Of a stretch of DNA of 5,526 nt, positions 1-5,526 are shown one piece after another. The notes under the pieces were generated by a model. That model worked only from the letters and a program-made list of their open reading frames with translations, ran no database searches and was not told where the DNA came from. Numbering within the stretch: the first letter of the stretch is position 1; every line of letters begins with the position of its first letter. The stretch lies in the IMG/VR virus record IMGVR_UViG_3300045988_097647, positions 1 to 5,526 of that record, one strand, 5' to 3'. The position numbers and the translations under genes are program-made. The DNA is from a virus.

Positions 1-79
1 ATTTTTTTTGCTCCTTAAATACAAACCAAGACACAAAATGTTAAGAATTTTTTCCCAAAAAGCGGGAGTAGCTTTTTTC
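1..79. repeat. Terminal redundancy of a circular genome (identical to 5448..5526)
   Basis: Positions 1-79 (attttttttgctccttaaatacaaaccaagacacaaaatgttaagaattttttcccaaaaagcgggagtagcttttttc) match 5448-5526 base for base. This implies a 5447-nt circular unit opened at an arbitrary point. Confidence 0.9.
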
Positions 80-310
80 TTCCGCCTGCGCTGCAGCTGA
101 GTGGCGAAAGCCATTTACGTCGTCAGTACCTCTTTTCTGCATGTTAACCAAATCATCCTGCATAGCGGCAGAAATAGCTTTAAGGCTTGCAGAGCCTTCG
201 CGGTTGTAGGTGCCATGACGAAACATATCAATAAAATCAACAACCTCTTGGATAAAAGGAATTACAGTGGACACGAGAAAGGTTAAAATTGCAGTAGTTT
301 TGTTTGACAT
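41..310 (-). CDS. Hypothetical small membrane protein (89 aa) with one N-terminal TM helix; candidate lysis or membrane-targeting accessory protein
   Basis: The ORF track gives 41..316 using a TTG start. An in-frame ATG at 310-308 has the SD GAGGTGA 6 nt upstream, and this SD overlaps the VP2 stop. Product: MSNKTTAILTFLVSTVIPFIQEVVDFI... followed by a hydrophilic C-terminal region (REGSASLKAISAAMQDDLVNMQKRGTDDVNG...). Residues ~6-22 form a hydrophobic helix containing a Pro. Stop TAA at 41-43. Confidence 0.5.
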   Translation of the reverse strand: MSNKTTAILTFLVSTVIPFIQEVVDFIDMFRHGTYNREGSASLKAISAAMQDDLVNMQKRGTDDVNGFRHSAAAQAEEKSYSRFLGKNS

Positions 311-321
311 AATCAATCACC

Positions 322-1119
322 TCATTTAGAAAAATAATTAGCAATACCGGAAAACAAACGATTAGCAGCACGGCCAATAGTATTCCAAGGTAAACCGTCA
401 TCAGAAAGGCCGAGGTCCTTATAATCCTTATTACGAGAAGTCTTATAATCATAATCAGCCTTAGCAACATTAGATAGCTGTGCATTATAAGCGGCAGAAC
501 TATTAGCAGCATTACCTTGAGCCAGCATCATAGTAGCTTGAGCAGGCATAACAACATTCATCATATACTGCTGACTAGCCTTTTGAGCGTCAATATACTC
601 GCCTTGCTTTTGAGCATTAGCTAAATTTTGCTTAACTAAAGCTAAATTGTCATTGTAAGAATCAGCAGCCAGCTTATTGGCAACAGAAATACCATACGTT
701 TCAGCATCATACTTCTTCGCACTAGCTCCAGCTAAAATAGTTTGAGCAGCTAAATTTTTTATTTGTTCATCGCTCATCTTTTCGGCAACCTGAGCTTGAC
801 GATTAGCAGCCTTAGCGGAATTACCAGCAGCAGAAGCAGACATACCAGCAGTAACACCTTCACCGAGATTATAGTTTGCAGAAAGAGCAGAAGCACCATT
901 AATAGAACCACCAATGCCTTGCGTAGCAGCAAGCATGGGATTAAGTCCAGCTTTTTGCATATCTTCCATAGCCCATTGATAACGATGCTGATAATTATAT
1001 ACATTACGCTGATTAGCTACAGTTGCAGCATGGCGAGCAGCAGAGTTAGAAAGAGAACCACCAATGAGAGACGAAATACCACCAGCAATAGCTCCAGCAG
1101 CAGATCCAAGAAATGACAT
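322..1119 (-). CDS. VP2: Minor capsid / DNA pilot protein VP2
   Basis: 265-aa ORF immediately downstream of VP1 (VP1 stop TAA, then AAAAAAGGAGTGATTTTTT, then ATG). N-terminus MSFLGSAAGAIAGGISSLIGG is Gly/Ala/Ser-rich. The protein is rich in Ala/Gln/Asn with low complexity and contains an AGLNPMLA-type segment, as in gokushovirus VP2 pilot proteins. Stop TGA at 322-324. Confidence 0.78.
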   Translation of the reverse strand: MSFLGSAAGAIAGGISSLIGGSLSNSAARHAATVANQRNVYNYQHRYQWAMEDMQKAGLNPMLAATQGIGGSINGASALSANYNLGEGVTAGMSASAAGNSAKAANRQAQVAEKMSDEQIKNLAAQTILAGASAKKYDAETYGISVANKLAADSYNDNLALVKQNLANAQKQGEYIDAQKASQQYMMNVVMPAQATMMLAQGNAANSSAAYNAQLSNVAKADYDYKTSRNKDYKDLGLSDDGLPWNTIGRAANRLFSGIANYFSK

Positions 1120-1136
1120 AAAAAATCACTCCTTTT

Positions 1137-2774
1137 TTAGAAATGACCCATCATACCGGGTATACCATACATAGGCATAGGACGAATACATTTTAAGTTA
1201 AATTTAACATCTAACAAGAAATGAGGATAGGACGGAACGGCAACTACGCGACTAATAGGCGGGTGGTCTTGAATAAACTCATCCGAAAGCGTAGGCAGCG
1301 TAGCGAATTTCTGTGACAAATGCCAAATGTCTAAAGGTTCTTTATAGGTTGAGCGGAATTGACCGGTAATCAAAGACGGCTTATAGCGATATTCTGCATA
1401 GCGTTCTTGATAGCCGAAAATTTTCTTATCATCATCATTTCCTTGGCAATAAATTTCAATGTTTTGAATAGCTTGTTCGCCTAAGTGAGCAAAGGACGGC
1501 CAATAGAAGTCCAGCACATCGGAGCGCAACCACATTTTATTAACGCCTTGCTGGTAAGTCAAATCAGCACGCACATTAATTAGGCCGATAACATAACCAA
1601 ATTCACTAAATGACTTGGTGAAAGCATGGTAACGCTGGGCGTTAAGTCCATATGCAGCTAAATTACCTTGTGGGGTTGTAGAGTCCGTAGAGCTTGTCTG
1701 AGTAACCGGGTTAATGTTCATCATACTAGAATGACTTCCAAGGAACTCAGGACGTTGCAAACGAGCATCGGGATTAGTTACACCGAAATGAGCTTGCAAT
1801 TTCTCCGTATAACGAGTACCGCCGCGGGCATCAATCTCATAATACCTTTGCAGCATAAACGCTTGACGAAGAGAATTAATGGTAATTGAAGTAGCAGAAG
1901 AAAGGTCAACTTTCAAACCGGATTTATAAGATTGAGGAAGGCCACTAACAGAACCCAAAGTAGGATTGAACGCCAAATGAGTACGGTCAGTAGGCGAAAG
2001 ATAAACGCCACCAGTAGCAACAGAACCAGAAACAGCATTATTATTAAAAATAAAATCACCGTCAGAAACAACAGGAGCAAATTGACCTAAAGGCAAATCA
2101 ACAGCCGGGCCTTTTTGTGGCCAAGGAAGCGCACCGGTGAAATAGTCATATCTTTTTCCGCGCGGAGCCGGGTCATACCAATTTTTAACACCGGACGGCA
2201 AACCATAATTAGGATTAGCGGTAGATTGTCCCATAGGTTCAAGTACTGTATTAGATTCGCCTTTGCTAACCTTAACAGATTTTTGCAGGTTCTCATCTCT
2301 GAACCACTCGTTCCAAATGAGCCAATACGAACGGAACGGCAAGCAGTTGACAGAAATATTCTTAAAAGTACCATTACTACAAGCTATACCCATATAATCG
2401 GGGAGCTTGTTTGTCATATCGCCGGTTAGAGAAACAGTAGGAACAAGGTAATCAGTAGAATCTTCGGGGTTCTCCTGCTCACCACAAAGATTTGCCCATT
2501 TATCATACACGAGCCTACTTGGAACAAAGAAAAAGAAGGACTCAATATAAATGTTATCCATGAACGGAACTACAGGAGTAGCCAAACGACAGAACTCCAC
2601 AGGGTTAAGAGTGAACGTATCGCCTGGAATAACTTCGTCGACAAAGTAAGGGATTAAAGCACCTTCGTTAAAGGTTGTCTTGTATACGTGACTTCTGTCA
2701 AAGACGGAGCGGCGAATATTAGCTTGCGGAATCATCGCAAAATGCGACTGATTAACGCGAATGTTACGAGCCAT
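1137..2774 (-). CDS. VP1: Major capsid protein VP1 (Microviridae F-like, gokushovirus type)
   Basis: 545-aa ORF, the largest in the window. N-terminus MARNIRVNQSHFAMIPQANIRRSVFDRSHV...IPGDTFTLNP is typical of gokushovirus VP1. ATG at 2774 is preceded on the coding strand by AAGGAG with an 8-nt spacer. Stop TAA at 1137-1139. The size (~530-570 aa class) and position upstream of a Gly/Ala-rich VP2 fit gokushovirus layout. Confidence 0.9.
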   Translation of the reverse strand: MARNIRVNQSHFAMIPQANIRRSVFDRSHVYKTTFNEGALIPYFVDEVIPGDTFTLNPVEFCRLATPVVPFMDNIYIESFFFFVPSRLVYDKWANLCGEQENPEDSTDYLVPTVSLTGDMTNKLPDYMGIACSNGTFKNISVNCLPFRSYWLIWNEWFRDENLQKSVKVSKGESNTVLEPMGQSTANPNYGLPSGVKNWYDPAPRGKRYDYFTGALPWPQKGPAVDLPLGQFAPVVSDGDFIFNNNAVSGSVATGGVYLSPTDRTHLAFNPTLGSVSGLPQSYKSGLKVDLSSATSITINSLRQAFMLQRYYEIDARGGTRYTEKLQAHFGVTNPDARLQRPEFLGSHSSMMNINPVTQTSSTDSTTPQGNLAAYGLNAQRYHAFTKSFSEFGYVIGLINVRADLTYQQGVNKMWLRSDVLDFYWPSFAHLGEQAIQNIEIYCQGNDDDKKIFGYQERYAEYRYKPSLITGQFRSTYKEPLDIWHLSQKFATLPTLSDEFIQDHPPISRVVAVPSYPHFLLDVKFNLKCIRPMPMYGIPGMMGHF

Positions 2775-2895
2775 AGTATTAACTCCTTAATTTTATTAAA
2801 CGACCGAAAAGCACGAGAACGGCATTTTCGTTATCAAATCAGAAGGGAATTAAAAATAAATAAAAGGCTTATTTTTGAAGGTTTTTCTGATTTTG

Positions 2896-2943
2896 TGTCA
2901 CCTTGACCAGTTACGATCAAGTAGGTAACTGGTCAAGGTGACA
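2896..2943 (-). promoter_or_regulatory. Perfect 19-bp inverted repeat with 10-nt loop in the VP3-VP1 intergenic region; candidate replication origin or structured regulatory element
   Basis: Plus 2896-2914 is tgtcaccttgaccagttac. The loop 2915-2924 is gatcaagtag. Plus 2925-2943 is gtaactggtcaaggtgaca, the exact reverse complement of the left arm. On the viral (coding) strand the loop reads CTACTTGATC. No U-tract follows on either strand, so it is not a classic intrinsic terminator. Confidence 0.6.
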
Positions 2944-2981
2944 AGGTTATTATTCTACATAAGTGAATATTAGCATATAGG

Positions 2982-3425
2982 TTATTTTTGCTCCAATTTA
3001 GACTCTCCTGCTACCGGAGTGACAGGTTCTACCGGAGTATCTACAATAGCTTTAGGTTTTAGGCCTAACTCTTCAAGCCTAGAAACAACTTTGGCGTCAG
3101 TAGATGTTAGAGCATCAAGCAGCATTCGTGGGTCATTGCCAAATTCAGCACGGACACTAGAAGGCAAATCTGCAAACTCTGCGTTAACATTAGCAACAAG
3201 GTTGCAAGCGGTTTCATAATCCGGGAGTAATGTGGTATCACCATATTGCAAAGTAGCCGGGTCATGTGCTCCAACAGAATCGACAATGCCGGTTGTGTTG
3301 AAATTGGCTATAATATGATGAATATCGCACTCTTCAGCGAAAGTTTGGTCAGCAAGCGAAGGCTGAGTAATTTCAACGTGAGGTTTTGGCGGTTGCTCAT
3401 CGTAAAGCGTATAAAATTTAGCCAT
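2982..3425 (-). CDS. VP3: Internal scaffolding protein VP3 (148 aa from ATG 3425; track ORF extends to TTG at 3572)
   Basis: The internal start MAKFYTLYDEQ... has SD AAAGGAG 10 nt upstream. The sequence ...ECDIHHIIANFNTTG...YGDTT...FADLPSSVRAEFGNDPRMLLDAL...LEELGL... matches the conserved gokushovirus VP3 pattern as I recall it (ECD-I..I...TG...YGD...F..LP...R..F.NDP...L.....LGL). It is acidic, as expected for a scaffolding protein. Stop TAA at 2982-2984. The 49-aa N-terminal extension in the track (TTG 3572) runs through a structured leader and is probably not translated. Confidence 0.6.
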   Translation of the reverse strand: MAKFYTLYDEQPPKPHVEITQPSLADQTFAEECDIHHIIANFNTTGIVDSVGAHDPATLQYGDTTLLPDYETACNLVANVNAEFADLPSSVRAEFGNDPRMLLDALTSTDAKVVSRLEELGLKPKAIVDTPVEPVTPVAGESKLEQK

Positions 3426-3543
3426 GCGTAAAAATCTCCTTTCTTTACCCGACAAGGCACGAGTAACGATTGCGTAAAGCGTAGGCTTGCGCCGTGTTAC
3501 GAAGATATGATATAGGCGGAGTGACCGGCAGCAAAGCACAGTC

Positions 3544-3562
3544 ATTTTGGCGTAGCCAAAAT
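3544..3562 (-). other. 8-bp stem / 3-nt loop hairpin in the putative VP3 leader
   Basis: Plus attttggc gta gccaaaat (3544-3551 and 3555-3562) is perfectly complementary. It lies ~120 nt upstream of the VP3 ATG on the coding strand, inside the region that the track reads as an N-terminal extension. Confidence 0.4.
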
Positions 3563-3635
3563 TTAAAAACAAAAAAGACGCTCAACATTACGCTGAACGC
3601 CTTTGATGTGTGGTATCACCACTTGCCTTATATGT

Positions 3636-3664
3636 AGTATACCACAAAATGAGAAAGCAGGCAA
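3636..3664 (-). promoter_or_regulatory. Sigma70-like promoter P2 (TTGCCT-N17-TGgTATACT) downstream of VP5 stop, upstream of VP3
   Basis: Coding strand: TAA TTGTAACGTACGC TTGCCT GCTTTCTCATTTTGTGG TATACT ACATATAAGG. The -35 is the complement of 3659-3664 and the -10 is the complement of 3636-3641, with a 17-nt spacer ending in TGG. The spacer shares GCTTT(T)TCTCAT...TGG with P1, and a TTGTAA motif lies just upstream, as at P1. Confidence 0.45.
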
Positions 3665-3677
3665 GCGTACGTTACAA

Positions 3678-3959
3678 TTACATTTTAGCACTCTCCGGAG
3701 GGGGGGTCAATAGCTCCGTGGCAGTGGAAAGCAGTAAAGTGGGATTTTGTGGGGAAAAGATACAGGTTTTGTCGTCAAACTCACCCAAATACATCAACAC
3801 AAAATCCTCGTGGTAGTCATGGATAATATTGGAACGCTCCGGGGTGGACACCTGATTAACCATAATTTGGAATTGACGAATGGCCATAGCATTATTTTGC
3901 TGAACGAAGGGCGGGTTCATCAGCTCGCCCTTGCGGTCATAAATACAGTATAATTTCAT
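3678..3959 (-). CDS. VP5: VP5-like non-structural protein (93 aa)
   Basis: ATG at 3959 has AAGGAG 8 nt upstream. N-terminus MKLYCIYDRKGELMNPPFVQQNNAMAIRQF and the ...YLGEFDDKT... segment resemble the F/Y-x-V/I-x-D-x-K...PF...A-x-R-x-F...GEFDD pattern I associate with gokushovirus VP5. Its position between VP4 and VP3 matches the gokushovirus order. Stop TAA at 3678-3680. The C-terminus PPPESAKM is encoded through a G7 homopolymer (3700-3706). Confidence 0.5.
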   Translation of the reverse strand: MKLYCIYDRKGELMNPPFVQQNNAMAIRQFQIMVNQVSTPERSNIIHDYHEDFVLMYLGEFDDKTCIFSPQNPTLLLSTATELLTPPPESAKM

Positions 3960-3963
3960 AAAA

Positions 3964-4293
3964 TCACTCCTTTTTTAAAGCAGAAAGCTGGGCATCAAGC
4001 TCGGCGTTAATTTTAGAAATGCCTTTATCCATAGAATCATCACGAGCAACCGAGTGAAGAAAAAGTTTAAAACGATGCAGCTGCTCTTTATCCATGAGAT
4101 AGTAAAAACCGTCATAGAGAACAATAGAAAAAGTATAACGACCATTTTCACCTTTGTAATCATTAGCAGCACGATAAGAACGAGCCTGACCATAAGAAGG
4201 GAATACAGTCCAAGACGGAAACTGTTCAAGAGATTTACGGATACGAGCATTATTTTTTTGGGAAAAATTAGGATTAAAATAATCTTTTAACAT
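3964..4293 (-). CDS. Hypothetical protein (110 aa), accessory ORF between VP4 and VP5
   Basis: The track ORF 3964..4350 begins at TTG. An in-frame ATG at 4293-4291 has the strong SD GTGAGGTAA 7 nt upstream and lies ~25 nt downstream of a consensus promoter. Product: MLKDYFNPNFSQKNNARIRKSLEQFPSW...GRYTFSIVLYDGFYYLMDKEQLHRFKLF...KINAELDAQLSALKKE. I do not recognise any motif in it. Stop TGA at 3964-3966 lies 4 nt before the next ATG, with the next gene's SD inside this ORF's 3' end, suggesting translational coupling. Confidence 0.55.
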   Translation of the reverse strand: MLKDYFNPNFSQKNNARIRKSLEQFPSWTVFPSYGQARSYRAANDYKGENGRYTFSIVLYDGFYYLMDKEQLHRFKLFLHSVARDDSMDKGISKINAELDAQLSALKKE

Positions 4294-4318
4294 ATTGCTT
4301 ACCTCACTTTCTATATAT

Positions 4319-4347
4319 ATTATACCATGAGAAAAAGCAACTGTCAA
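4319..4347 (-). promoter_or_regulatory. Near-consensus sigma70-type promoter P1 (TTGACA-N17-TGgTATAAT) driving ORF110/VP5
   Basis: Coding-strand sequence: TTGTTGACAG TTGCTTTTTCTCATGG TATAAT ATATATAGAAAGTGAGGTAAGCAAT ATG. The -35 TTGACA is the complement of 4342-4347. The 17-nt spacer ends in TGG, giving an extended -10. The -10 TATAAT is the complement of 4319-4324. The predicted start site lies ~25 nt before the ATG at 4293. Confidence 0.6.
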
Positions 4348-4350
4348 CAA

Positions 4351-4380
4351 CTTTTTACAACTTTTTACAACTTTTACAAA
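4351..4380 (-). repeat. Three tandem 10-bp direct repeats (coding strand TTGTAAAAAG x3, third copy TTTGTAAAAG) abutting the -35 of P1 and overlapping the Rep stop codon
   Basis: Plus strand reads ctttttacaa ctttttacaa cttttacaaa (4351-4380). The coding strand reads TTTGTAAAAG TTGTAAAAAG TTGTAAAAAG TTGTTGACA. The Rep stop TAA at 4374-4376 lies inside the array. Confidence 0.7.
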
Positions 4381-5318
4381 CCTAAATTATCAAAATCACG
4401 CTCAAATTGTTCCTGCCGGTGCTTCAAAATCTTCTCTTTTGCTTCCAGCCTTTTGCAATCGATGACGGCAGCCTTTGCATTTTCGGCCTTATTTTGCTTG
4501 TATATACTATACCAAACGGGGTTACTGCGCTCAAATAGTGTTTGATAATAGCGAGGTATCTTATATTTAGCTCCATTAATAGTTACAAAGCCTAATTTAA
4601 AAATATCTTCTGAATAAAGGCCAAAATAATCGGCTCCTATGCCAGGCTTAAGAGAACTACCGACAAACTCCGGAGATATGCCAAGAGCATCATACATACA
4701 GGCATTTTTACCGGTCTGCTTTTTAAGGCTATATTTAGCAACATACCGGGCGGATTCAAAGGTAATCGCTCCAACAGTGTTGAAACCATATGGCCAAAGC
4801 CGCTCCAACGTAGGGGAACGAAAAAGATTGTAACCAGCTGTTAACGCCGATACTTTGCGAACATCCGAAGGAAACCAACCAAAGCACAAAATATGATAAT
4901 GCGGCCTGCGGTTAAGATCGCCATACTCACCGCAACAAAGAAAACGTATCTTAGAATTGTCATGATAATCTAAATAACGACGTAACCTTTTAAAAAAAAG
5001 TTGTAAATGCTCACGATGCAGCGAGCAGTCAGCTGGAAGGCAATCATCGTTATAGGTTAACGTGATGAAGCAGTTATGCAAATGCAGTTTAGCCTCATGA
5101 ACGCAACGAATAGCCCAATCATTAGCCTTGTCAAGACGGCAGCCTAAGCATTGACCGCACGGAACGACAACAGCATAATTATTAGCTAGCTCATTTTTAG
5201 CATACTCCAACGATTTACCGGACAGCTGACGATAAGCAAAAAAATTTGATAGCTCATACTTGCCGTTAGCGTTAGGCACAGCAGAACGTTTAGCAAACAT
5301 AGGATTAAGGCAAGTCAT
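4374..5318 (-). CDS. VP4: Replication initiation protein VP4 (rolling-circle Rep, phiX174 gene A family)
   Basis: 317-aa ORF in the track, 4374..5327, which starts at an in-frame GTG at 5327. The first ATG is at 5318 (the 4th codon of the track ORF). RCR motif 1 CFITLTY lies at 5052-5072. Motif 2 HYH, within PHYHILCF, lies at 4893-4901. Motif 3 YVAKYSLKK places the catalytic Tyr residues near 4731-4745. A CGQCLGC zinc-finger-like cluster, common in gokushovirus VP4, is present. Stop TAA at 4374-4376. Confidence 0.9.
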   Translation of the reverse strand: MTCLNPMFAKRSAVPNANGKYELSNFFAYRQLSGKSLEYAKNELANNYAVVVPCGQCLGCRLDKANDWAIRCVHEAKLHLHNCFITLTYNDDCLPADCSLHREHLQLFFKRLRRYLDYHDNSKIRFLCCGEYGDLNRRPHYHILCFGWFPSDVRKVSALTAGYNLFRSPTLERLWPYGFNTVGAITFESARYVAKYSLKKQTGKNACMYDALGISPEFVGSSLKPGIGADYFGLYSEDIFKLGFVTINGAKYKIPRYYQTLFERSNPVWYSIYKQNKAENAKAAVIDCKRLEAKEKILKHRQEQFERDFDNLGL

Positions 5319-5335
5319 AATACACACACTTTCTG

Positions 5336-5449
5336 CTACATGCGGATACCGCCGCGCATGTTGCGAGATTTAAGATTTTTAAGCCGCGGAACGGCGTGAT
5401 TACGAAAGTTCCGGCGTGAACTACCGCGAGAAATTCTACTTCTTCTCAT
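5336..5449 (-). CDS. VP8: Small arginine-rich DNA-binding protein (VP8 / phiX174 J-like), 37 aa
   Basis: Hand translation of the reverse complement of 5336..5449: ATG AGA AGA AGT AGA ATT TCT CGC GGT AGT TCA CGC CGG AAC TTT CGT AAT CAC GCC GTT CCG CGG CTT AAA AAT CTT AAA TCT CGC AAC ATG CGC GGC GGT ATC CGC ATG TAG. This gives MRRSRISRGSSRRNFRNHAVPRLKNLKSRNMRGGIRM, with 11 Arg and 3 Lys in 37 residues. SD AAGGAG lies 8 nt upstream. The ORF sits directly upstream of Rep. The ATG spans the circular junction (5449 equals window position 2). It is missing from the ORF track because of the length cutoff. Confidence 0.6.
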   Translation of the reverse strand: MRRSRISRGSSRRNFRNHAVPRLKNLKSRNMRGGIRM

Positions 5450-5526
5450 TTTTTTTGCTCCTTAAATACAAACCAAGACACAAAATGTTAAGAATTTTTT
5501 CCCAAAAAGCGGGAGTAGCTTTTTTC
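5448..5526. repeat. Second copy of terminal redundancy (circularisation overlap)
   Basis: Exact copy of window positions 1-79. Confidence 0.9.

Follow-up and report, generated by a model that had tools for sequence, protein, structure and literature searches.

The closest characterised system for the element described here is the viral-strand origin of phiX174, which is described as consisting of a bind site and a nick site (review, PMC5714925). The RefSeq record of phiX174 annotates its rep_origin at 4306, i.e. with the nick at G4305|A4306. For the gokushoviruses our literature search found no description of a viral-strand origin or of its motif, the original papers on Chp2, phiMH2K, SpV4 and Chp1 lying beyond that search, so that a prior mention is possible there. 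Here we analyzed a DNA stretch of 5,526 nucleotides (nt) (the window; IMG/VR virus record IMGVR_UViG_3300045988_097647, positions 1 to 5,526), which is a circular gokushovirus genome of 5,447 nt that was over-assembled and carries an exact direct repeat of 79 nt at both ends (1-79 and 5448-5526). An earlier reading of its letters (the sequence-only reading) had proposed that a hairpin in the spacer between the genes of VP3, the scaffold protein, and VP1, the major capsid protein, is a rolling-circle origin nicked by VP4, the replication initiator (Rep). We argue that this hairpin is very probably the viral-strand (leading-strand, 'double-strand') rolling-circle origin, the gokushovirus version of the phiX174 origin. 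The earlier interpretation was strengthened by the conservation of the element, the covariation of its stem, its strand bias, its presence in one copy per genome and a second conserved box, which together make a strong case for an origin.

The hairpin of the VP3-VP1 spacer and its likeness to the phiX174 origin

The inverted repeat 2896-2914/2925-2943 is complementary at 19/19 positions with 10 nt between its arms, and the runner-up inverted repeats in the window were either 72-80% complementary or 10 bp long. Thus an inverted-repeat scan confirmed the earlier statement that a perfect 19-bp inverted repeat, the strongest of the window, is present here. The parts of the element, given on the presumed viral strand, are as follows.

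2925-2943, minus strand: 5' arm of the hairpin, TGTCACCTTGACCAGTTAC, 19/19 complementary to 2896-2914
2915-2924, minus strand: hairpin loop of 10 nt, CTACTTGATC, with the conserved core C-T-T-G-A-T
2896-2914, minus strand: 3' arm of the hairpin, GTAACTGGTCAAGGTGACA, with changes that compensate those of the 5' arm in three relatives (L007, L012, L013)
2904-2935, minus strand only: core element matched over its full length by the covariance model described below (40.7 bits, E = 4e-9)
2895-2900, minus strand: candidate Rep 'bind' box TGACAC, conserved, the G of its GAC lying 19 nt from the predicted nick G

Folded as DNA, the hairpin alone gave -20.5 kcal/mol and the whole 207-nt spacer -38.6 kcal/mol, against -12.8 +/- 2.75 in shuffles (z = -9.4). 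In the 5' arm the inner CAGTTAC is conserved subfamily-wide and the outer part is clade-specific; GTAACTG of the 3' arm is conserved even in those genomes where it is located in the loop. The loop reads GATCAAGTAG on the plus strand and CTACTTGATC on the minus strand, which places ACTTGAT on the coding strand, presumably the viral one, and we predict from the match to phiX174 that Rep would nick the minus strand between G2918 and A2917 (ACTTG|AT). The sequence-only reading had considered this 7-mer unlikely to occur by chance in a 10-nt loop. Its exact occurrence in the loop was borne out; as a word it is not unusual, since the single copy found in the window, both strands counted, compares with 0.73 expected in 5.5 kb. 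One ACTTGAT in such a length is unremarkable and its placement in the loop is what is unusual. In the window and in the relative L007 the last loop position is C, not A, which creates a GATC (Dam) site at 2915-2918 on the plus strand, overlapping the predicted nick dinucleotide.

The window core ACTTGAT equals letter for letter the 7 nt that surround the experimentally mapped phiX174 nick, and the phiX174 decamer CAACTTGATA is matched at 8/10 positions in the window and at 9/10 in most of its close relatives. Of the likeness to the phiX174 origin claimed earlier, the shared core stands; the phiX174 origin in its full 18 nt was not found in the window, up to 3 mismatches being allowed. The Rep motifs of phiX174 A type that had been noticed before are indeed present, as CFITLTY, PHYHI and YVAKY of VP4 align with FDTLTL, LHFHA and YVAKY of phiX174 protein A (pairwise blastp E = 3e-5), YVAKY being identical to residues 343-347 of the latter. 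VP4 is therefore presumed, from these motifs, to be the enzyme that would nick the hairpin loop.

Alignment of the contexts of the element on its core revealed a second conserved feature. Conservation is lacking in the 5' flank, and the 3' side has the consensus ACTTGATGTAACTGtgCtAgGTGACACCAAA, in which the GAC of the TGACAC box lies at +18 (73 contexts) or +19 (24 contexts) from the predicted nick G, i.e. in 97/101 unique contexts. Measured from the end of the perfect stem, the same GAC ranges from -4 to +7. With an offset that is fixed to the nick and variable to the stem end, the box goes with the nick rather than with the hairpin. In an independent sample of IMG/VR contexts, fetched with a 15-mer which excluded the box, GAC stood at +18 in 78/83 unique contexts. 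In the window the box has been absorbed into the extended 3' arm; the 19-bp stem of the window clade is the common stem of about 11 bp plus a 5' complement to the TGACAC box. The phiX174 viral-strand origin, CAACTTG|ATATTAATAACACTATAGACCAC (30 nt, nicked by gene A protein), also has GAC 18 nt from the nick G, and its bipartite layout, with a binding domain about 18-23 nt 3' of the nick in a unit of roughly 30 nt, would be matched by the core and the TGACAC box seen here, the latter being a candidate Rep binding site.

If the hairpin is the origin, replication could proceed as follows. On supercoiled replicative-form DNA the inverted repeat would extrude or breathe, and the core (T)ACTTG|AT would become single-stranded in the loop. 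VP4 would dock on the stem-proximal GTAACTG together with the TGACAC box, 18-19 nt 3' of the cut, and one of its YVAKY tyrosines would cleave G2918|A2917 on the minus strand, after which VP4 would remain attached to the 5' A. A host polymerase would then extend from the 3'-OH of the G, and after one round the hairpin would re-form in the displaced strand, where the second tyrosine would cut, the first linkage would be resolved and a circular genome would be released, ready to be packaged. The nick position, the binding of Rep to the box, the extrusion of the hairpin and its role in termination are all steps that we infer.

Conservation and covariation across gokushoviruses

GenBank megablast with the whole window matched just short VP1/VP2 fragments and no near-identical phage DNA, hence relatives were reached through their proteins. 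A VP1 search of IMG/VR returned 41 loci, and the 15 of them with 85-88% VP1 identity were taken as close relatives. The hairpin was kept at the same position in 15/15, and three of them had compensatory stem changes, C>T facing G>A in L007, C>A facing G>T in L012 and AC>CT facing GT>AG in L013, while the stem of L009 amounted to 20 bp. The loop core TACTTGAT was unchanged in these relatives, most of whose loops were CTACTTGATA. As the spacer showed 89% mean column identity over the 15 genomes of the clade, conservation there is uninformative alone and it is the compensatory changes that are informative. Farther away, loci at 53-56% VP1 identity had a shorter stem, GCCAGTTAC/GTAACTGGC, with the loop TTACTTGAT at the same VP3-VP1 place, and loci at 44-47% carried unrelated stems (ggggcattgg, aaggccagg, cagtaaacacaata) around ...CACTTGAT... 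or ...CTACTTGATAT.

We also selected 79 further whole contigs by Rep alignment alone and listed all their perfect hairpins of at least 8 bp without regard to any motif. The longest hairpin in most of these genomes had the form (variable outer stem)-CAGTTAC-(N)TACTTGAT-GTAACTG-(outer stem), and the usual loop motif in gokushovirus contigs was (C/T)TACTTGAT. Overall, 102/125 loci had a hairpin with a perfect stem of 8 bp or more whose loop carried CT[TA]G[AT]T in sense, and in 84 it was the longest of the genome; among 501 hairpins the motif occurred 103 times in sense and 9 times in antisense, where about 4 are expected by chance. The loci in which no motif hairpin was found were mostly contigs ending just after VP3, or had one stem mismatch. 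A covariance model of 31 nt, built from 66 unique gokushovirus hairpins, found one site per genome unit in 75/79 of the Rep-selected contigs. In the distant microviruses that were checked (Rhizobium phage, tortoise microvirus 81, PQ006238, PP511339 and PQ007163) a convincing element was absent, and it seems to be confined to Gokushovirinae in the broad sense. Thus the stem-loop and its loop, for which the sequence-only reading had suggested a comparison of related gokushoviruses, are both conserved from the close relatives to other genera, with stems that covary or have been replaced, the opposite of the outcome which that reading had named as a refutation.

The element was also found in cultured phages of three genera, Chp2, phiMH2K and SpV4. 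Chp2 has a 14-bp stem, ctagcgtataacag-TCTACTTGAT-ctgttatacgctag, in the VP3/ORF8 interval; phiMH2K has an 11-bp stem, agttcggctac-GGACCCTACTTGTTGTAA-gtagccgaact, whose loop contains ...CTACTTGTTG...; and SpV4 has a 10-bp stem, tggggcatat-ATTACTTGTTATA-atatgcccca. Chp1 carries a variant, gggctatat-CCTCTTGGCT-atatagccc, four bases past ORF3/VP3, which is not among the hairpins annotated in the Chp1 record. In the prophage of Escherichia coli strain C5 the VP3-VP1 interval holds, without annotation, cctggcacagt-GCCCTACTTGATGTA-actgtgccagg. This prophage (L126) occupies about 2315-6830 of the locus taken from chromosome NZ_CP010122 and has dif-like sites (27/28 and 20/28) on both flanks; the consensus hairpin matched 6/5,426 complete E. 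coli genomes. The loop is thus conserved whether the phage infects Chlamydia, Bdellovibrio, Spiroplasma, E. coli or one of many hosts in the environment, and its constancy over such diverse hosts suggests a virus-encoded reader rather than a host factor.

Covariation was assessed on a MAFFT alignment of the 66 unique hairpins over a helix of 12 pairs. Paired cells amounted to 86%, against 25-43% when the partner was slid by 1-3 columns; changes on both sides were seen in 11/12 stem pairs, and doubly changed cells numbered 106 against 32.7 +/- 4.3 in shuffles, with 0/500 shuffles reaching 106. Wholly different stems occurred across lineages (e.g. gaccatatg, tggcgtatat, ggcatatcta and cagtaaacacaata), and in the same 66 hairpins C, T, G and T of C-T-x-G-x-T were invariant. 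Over all loci the loop core fell into discrete classes that have only C, T, G and, as a rule, the final T in common: ...ACTAGAT in L064, L067, L071, L075, L079, L081, L085, L098, L100 and L108; CTTGTT in L034, L041, L056, L060, L090, L105, phiMH2K and SpV4; TCTTGAT in L058, L077 and L117; and TCTTGG in Chp1 (2750-2777).

The element lies on the coding strand in the window, in 72/75 Rep-selected loci and in 81/88 loci of the independent sample, i.e. in 92-96% of genomes. The nearest upstream gene was VP3 in 66/70 loci, with a median of 21 nt from its stop to the hairpin centre, and downstream lay VP4 (59 loci) or VP1 (10 loci); the element moves together with VP3, and in the commonest arrangement it stands about 200 nt upstream of the Rep gene. 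Inverted elements, which have the motif on the non-coding strand and still lie between VP3 and VP4, were noticed in L048 (4387-4420), L116 (2423-2453) and L110 (2070-2099 and 6778-6808), and in the independent sample in L169, L191, L199, L206, L217, L221 and L242 (7/88). Compared with relatives, the inversion covers the element of about 40 nt alone. In L110 (IMGVR_UViG_3300020047_002114, 8,974 nt) two distinct gokushovirus genomes are arranged in tandem; both have an inverted element, their VP4 copies are 42% and 35% identical to the VP4 of the window, and the contig may be a chimeric assembly or a co-integrate.

All recognisable genes of the window, assigned from its long open reading frames (ORFs) by Pfam, are on the minus strand, and the neighbourhood of the element is as follows.

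1137-2774, minus strand: VP1, major capsid protein (PF02305, E = 2.8e-172)
2775-2981, minus strand: VP3-VP1 intergenic spacer, containing the origin-like hairpin, two more conserved hairpins and the VP1 ribosome-binding site
2783-2788, minus strand: VP1 ribosome-binding site AAGGAG, inside the VP3-VP1 spacer
2982-3572, minus strand: VP3, scaffold protein of Chlamydia-phage type (PF09675), the conserved neighbour upstream of the hairpin
3678-3959, minus strand: VP5 (ORF5), assigned by Pfam
4374-5327, minus strand: VP4, rolling-circle Rep, a HUH endonuclease with two tyrosines (PF23343 REP_ORF2-G2P, E = 1.4e-23)

The gene order on the coding strand is VP4 - ORFx - VP5 - VP3 - (hairpin) - VP1 - VP2 - small conserved ORF, and an order identical to it has been described for enterobacterial gokushoviruses by Kirchberger and Ochman (PMC7062461). 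The small ORF after VP2 (41-316, minus strand, 91 aa) showed 89-93% amino acid identity in the 15 relatives and had no Pfam match; it is probably a real small gene and possibly a VP8-like DNA-binding protein as in enterogokushoviruses. Another 91-aa ORF (237-512, minus strand) overlaps VP2 and is more weakly conserved. The statement that the VP3-VP1 spacer, at 207 nt, is the longest non-coding gap holds when the terminal repeat and ORF 41-316 are counted, since the gap on the VP2 side is then only about 160 nt. The ORF between VP4 and VP5 (3964-4350, minus strand, 128 aa) had 33-87% identity among the relatives, against 90-97% for the neighbour genes, and is a hypervariable or often exchanged gene without Pfam match. 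Two further hairpins of the spacer were present in all 15 close relatives: 2836-2893 (minus strand), in which ATCAG/CTGAT alternates with ATACG/CGTAT, and 2805-2830 (minus strand), with G>A accompanied by C>T and G>C by C>G. Either of them might be the complementary-strand origin or might control the transcription of VP1.

Weighing the proposed origin against other explanations

An element that is single-copy, strand-biased and conserved in structure, whose invariant loop has the mapped phiX174 cut site, which has a box at the phiX174 spacing and which occurs in phages of unrelated hosts, is best explained as the viral-strand origin. It could instead be the complementary-strand (lagging-strand, single-strand) origin, i.e. 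a hairpin in the injected single-stranded DNA (ssDNA) that is read by host primase, PriA or RNA polymerase like the phiX174 F-G hairpin or the G4 origin. Every microvirus requires a signal of such kind, the hairpin is intergenic on the packaged-sense strand like those of phiX174 and G4, the conserved, covarying hairpins of other small microviruses were assigned such a role by Olo Ndela et al. 2022 with the proviso that it was not certifiable (PMC9865509), and a symmetric stem would survive the loop inversions of a few genomes. But for a signal that the host reads there is no cause to imitate the phiX174 Rep nick site and a box at the phiX174 spacing, nor would one expect its loop to stay the same in phages of Chlamydia, Bdellovibrio, Spiroplasma and E. 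coli, whose priming systems differ; moreover, no likeness to the phiX174 F-G region was found beyond chance 7-8-mers, and the two other conserved, covarying hairpins of the spacer are available for the role. We therefore consider it improbable that priming of the complementary strand is what the hairpin serves in place of viral-strand initiation; a dual role, as origin of both strands, is possible. A function at the level of RNA or transcription, as terminator or attenuator after VP3, as mRNA-stabilising 3' hairpin or as translational element of VP1, appears more improbable still. The intergenic hairpins of phiX174 are weak terminators and mRNA stabilisers, and here the stem is very stable, follows the VP3 stop at a median of 21 nt and lies upstream of VP1 in the window genome. 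A terminator, however, can do without an invariant loop and without a box whose distance from a loop nucleotide is fixed, and the gene downstream varies by lineage (VP4 or VP1, as given above). A scan for intrinsic terminators over 2700-3100 on both strands gave 0 sites, the 3' flank on the coding strand being A-rich (CAAAATCAGAAAAA; consensus ...CACCAAA) and free of a T run.

Hardly credible, finally, is a packaging signal or a site of recombination or integration (a XerCD target of dif type). Like the palindromic dif sites at which enterogokushoviruses integrate (PMC7062461), the element is palindromic and non-coding. However, 19-bp arms around a 10-nt spacer are unlike the 11-6-11 dif layout, and the dif-like sites of the C5 prophage lie on its two flanks (2315 and 6802 of the locus), whereas the hairpin is internal, near 4000. 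The best match of the window to a dif/XerCD site was 18/28, which is the level of shuffled sequence, and 13/28 inside the hairpin region. Packaging in Microviridae is coupled to Rep-driven strand synthesis, and a packaging role would therefore be inseparable from origin function. In Rfam 15 no family fits, the sole match over the hairpin being a chance one to a miRNA precursor model (22.7 bits, gathering score 84), and no tRNA was found.

Several points weigh against the viral-strand origin. The case for it is built wholly on comparison. The closest characterised system, phiX174, needs no hairpin and has its origin inside gene A, so that the hairpin is a departure from it, and beyond the core and GAC only about 6/21 positions of the 30-nt consensus match the phiX174 origin, which is the chance level. 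The element nearly abuts the VP3 stop, which would also suit an RNA-level or transcriptional role. The hairpins used for covariation were preselected as hairpins and many of the genomes are related, hence the percentages are not independent trials, and what carries the argument is that such varied stems surround a single constant loop. Lastly, the element is inverted relative to all genes in 3/75 and 7/88 loci. If it is the origin, phages with an inverted element would package the antisense strand; the alternative is that the inversions are artefacts of amplification or assembly at the palindrome. A bolder proposal, that the element is a subfamily-wide origin and at the same time a reversible polarity switch, in which recombination between the arms would flip the loop so that 4-8% of genomes would be antisense-packaging, we regard as speculative and rather unlikely. 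The symmetric stem might also act as a complementary-strand priming signal in either orientation.

Significance and comparison with known systems

The records of Chp2, phiMH2K, SpV4, Chp1 and the E. coli prophage have no rep_origin feature, and where the 32 GenBank microvirus records match the hairpin region, they annotate nothing or the last part of the scaffold gene. The nick site of a HUH Rep, sometimes placed in a hairpin loop, is a well-known kind of element; its gokushovirus form, a phiX174-type core and box in an intergenic hairpin, appears to be an undescribed variant, of which the window holds one clear instance. Prophages of E. coli of the same type as those that have been revived in the laboratory (PMC7062461) carry the element as well, which makes it immediately testable. 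If the hairpin is the origin, the whole subfamily would gain a precise nick site (ACTTG|AT) together with a candidate box for binding, thousands of metagenomic microvirus genomes could be numbered from it as a natural zero point and assigned a strand, and it would be the cis element for gokushovirus phagemids or systems producing single-stranded DNA. Gokushoviruses are among the most abundant ssDNA phages of gut, marine and soil viromes, and the 31-nt covariance model can be used to flag their DNA. The phiX174 origin would then be a derived, hairpin-less form of a wider layout, or the gokushovirus origin a hairpin-bearing form of that of phiX174, and the origin of a phage would be linked by sequence to the CTTGATA nick sites of pC194-type plasmids.

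In the pC194/pUB110 family, Rep_1 reportedly nicks CTTG|ATA, and this Rep family is said to have once been classed with protein A of phiX174 (Gros et al. 1987; Ilyina and Koonin 1992). These origins have the cut-site core CTTGAT(A) in common with the gokushovirus element, but they belong to plasmids and not to viruses, and their flanking architecture differs. Within Microviridae, Olo Ndela et al. 2022 described intergenic hairpins with conserved loops and compensatory stems in reekeekee- and roodoodoo-microviruses and tentatively assigned them to complementary-strand priming (PMC9865509); those hairpins belong to other clades, and no phiX174-like nick motif is reported there (PMC9865509).

[quoted passage not shown] Their loop nonanucleotide, TAATATT|AC or similar (NANTATT|AC type), is unrelated to CTACTTGATC, and their Rep has a single catalytic tyrosine and an SF3 helicase, whereas VP4 has two tyrosines and the HUH domain alone, without SF3 (PMC6668415 for the CRESS-DNA Rep). 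Iterons of CRESS type were not seen in the gokushovirus element, which has just one 3' box, and the gokushovirus host is bacterial. Thus the parallel with CRESS-DNA viruses and geminiviruses drawn in the sequence-only reading is apt only as an analogy for the presentation of the nick site in a hairpin loop, and fails for the loop sequence and the Rep type, which are phiX174/pC194-like.

The nearest likeness is to phiX174 itself, where the motif is likewise on the mRNA-sense strand and is served by a homologous Rep with FxTLT, HxH and an identical YVAKY. The phiX174 origin lies within gene A, CAACTTGATATT..., without a flanking inverted repeat, whereas that proposed for gokushoviruses is intergenic with arms of 8-20 bp, and in place of the AT-rich spacer of phiX174 it has the 3' arm of the hairpin. 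Location in gene A without a hairpin is an attribute of phiX174-like phages, not a mechanistic requirement.

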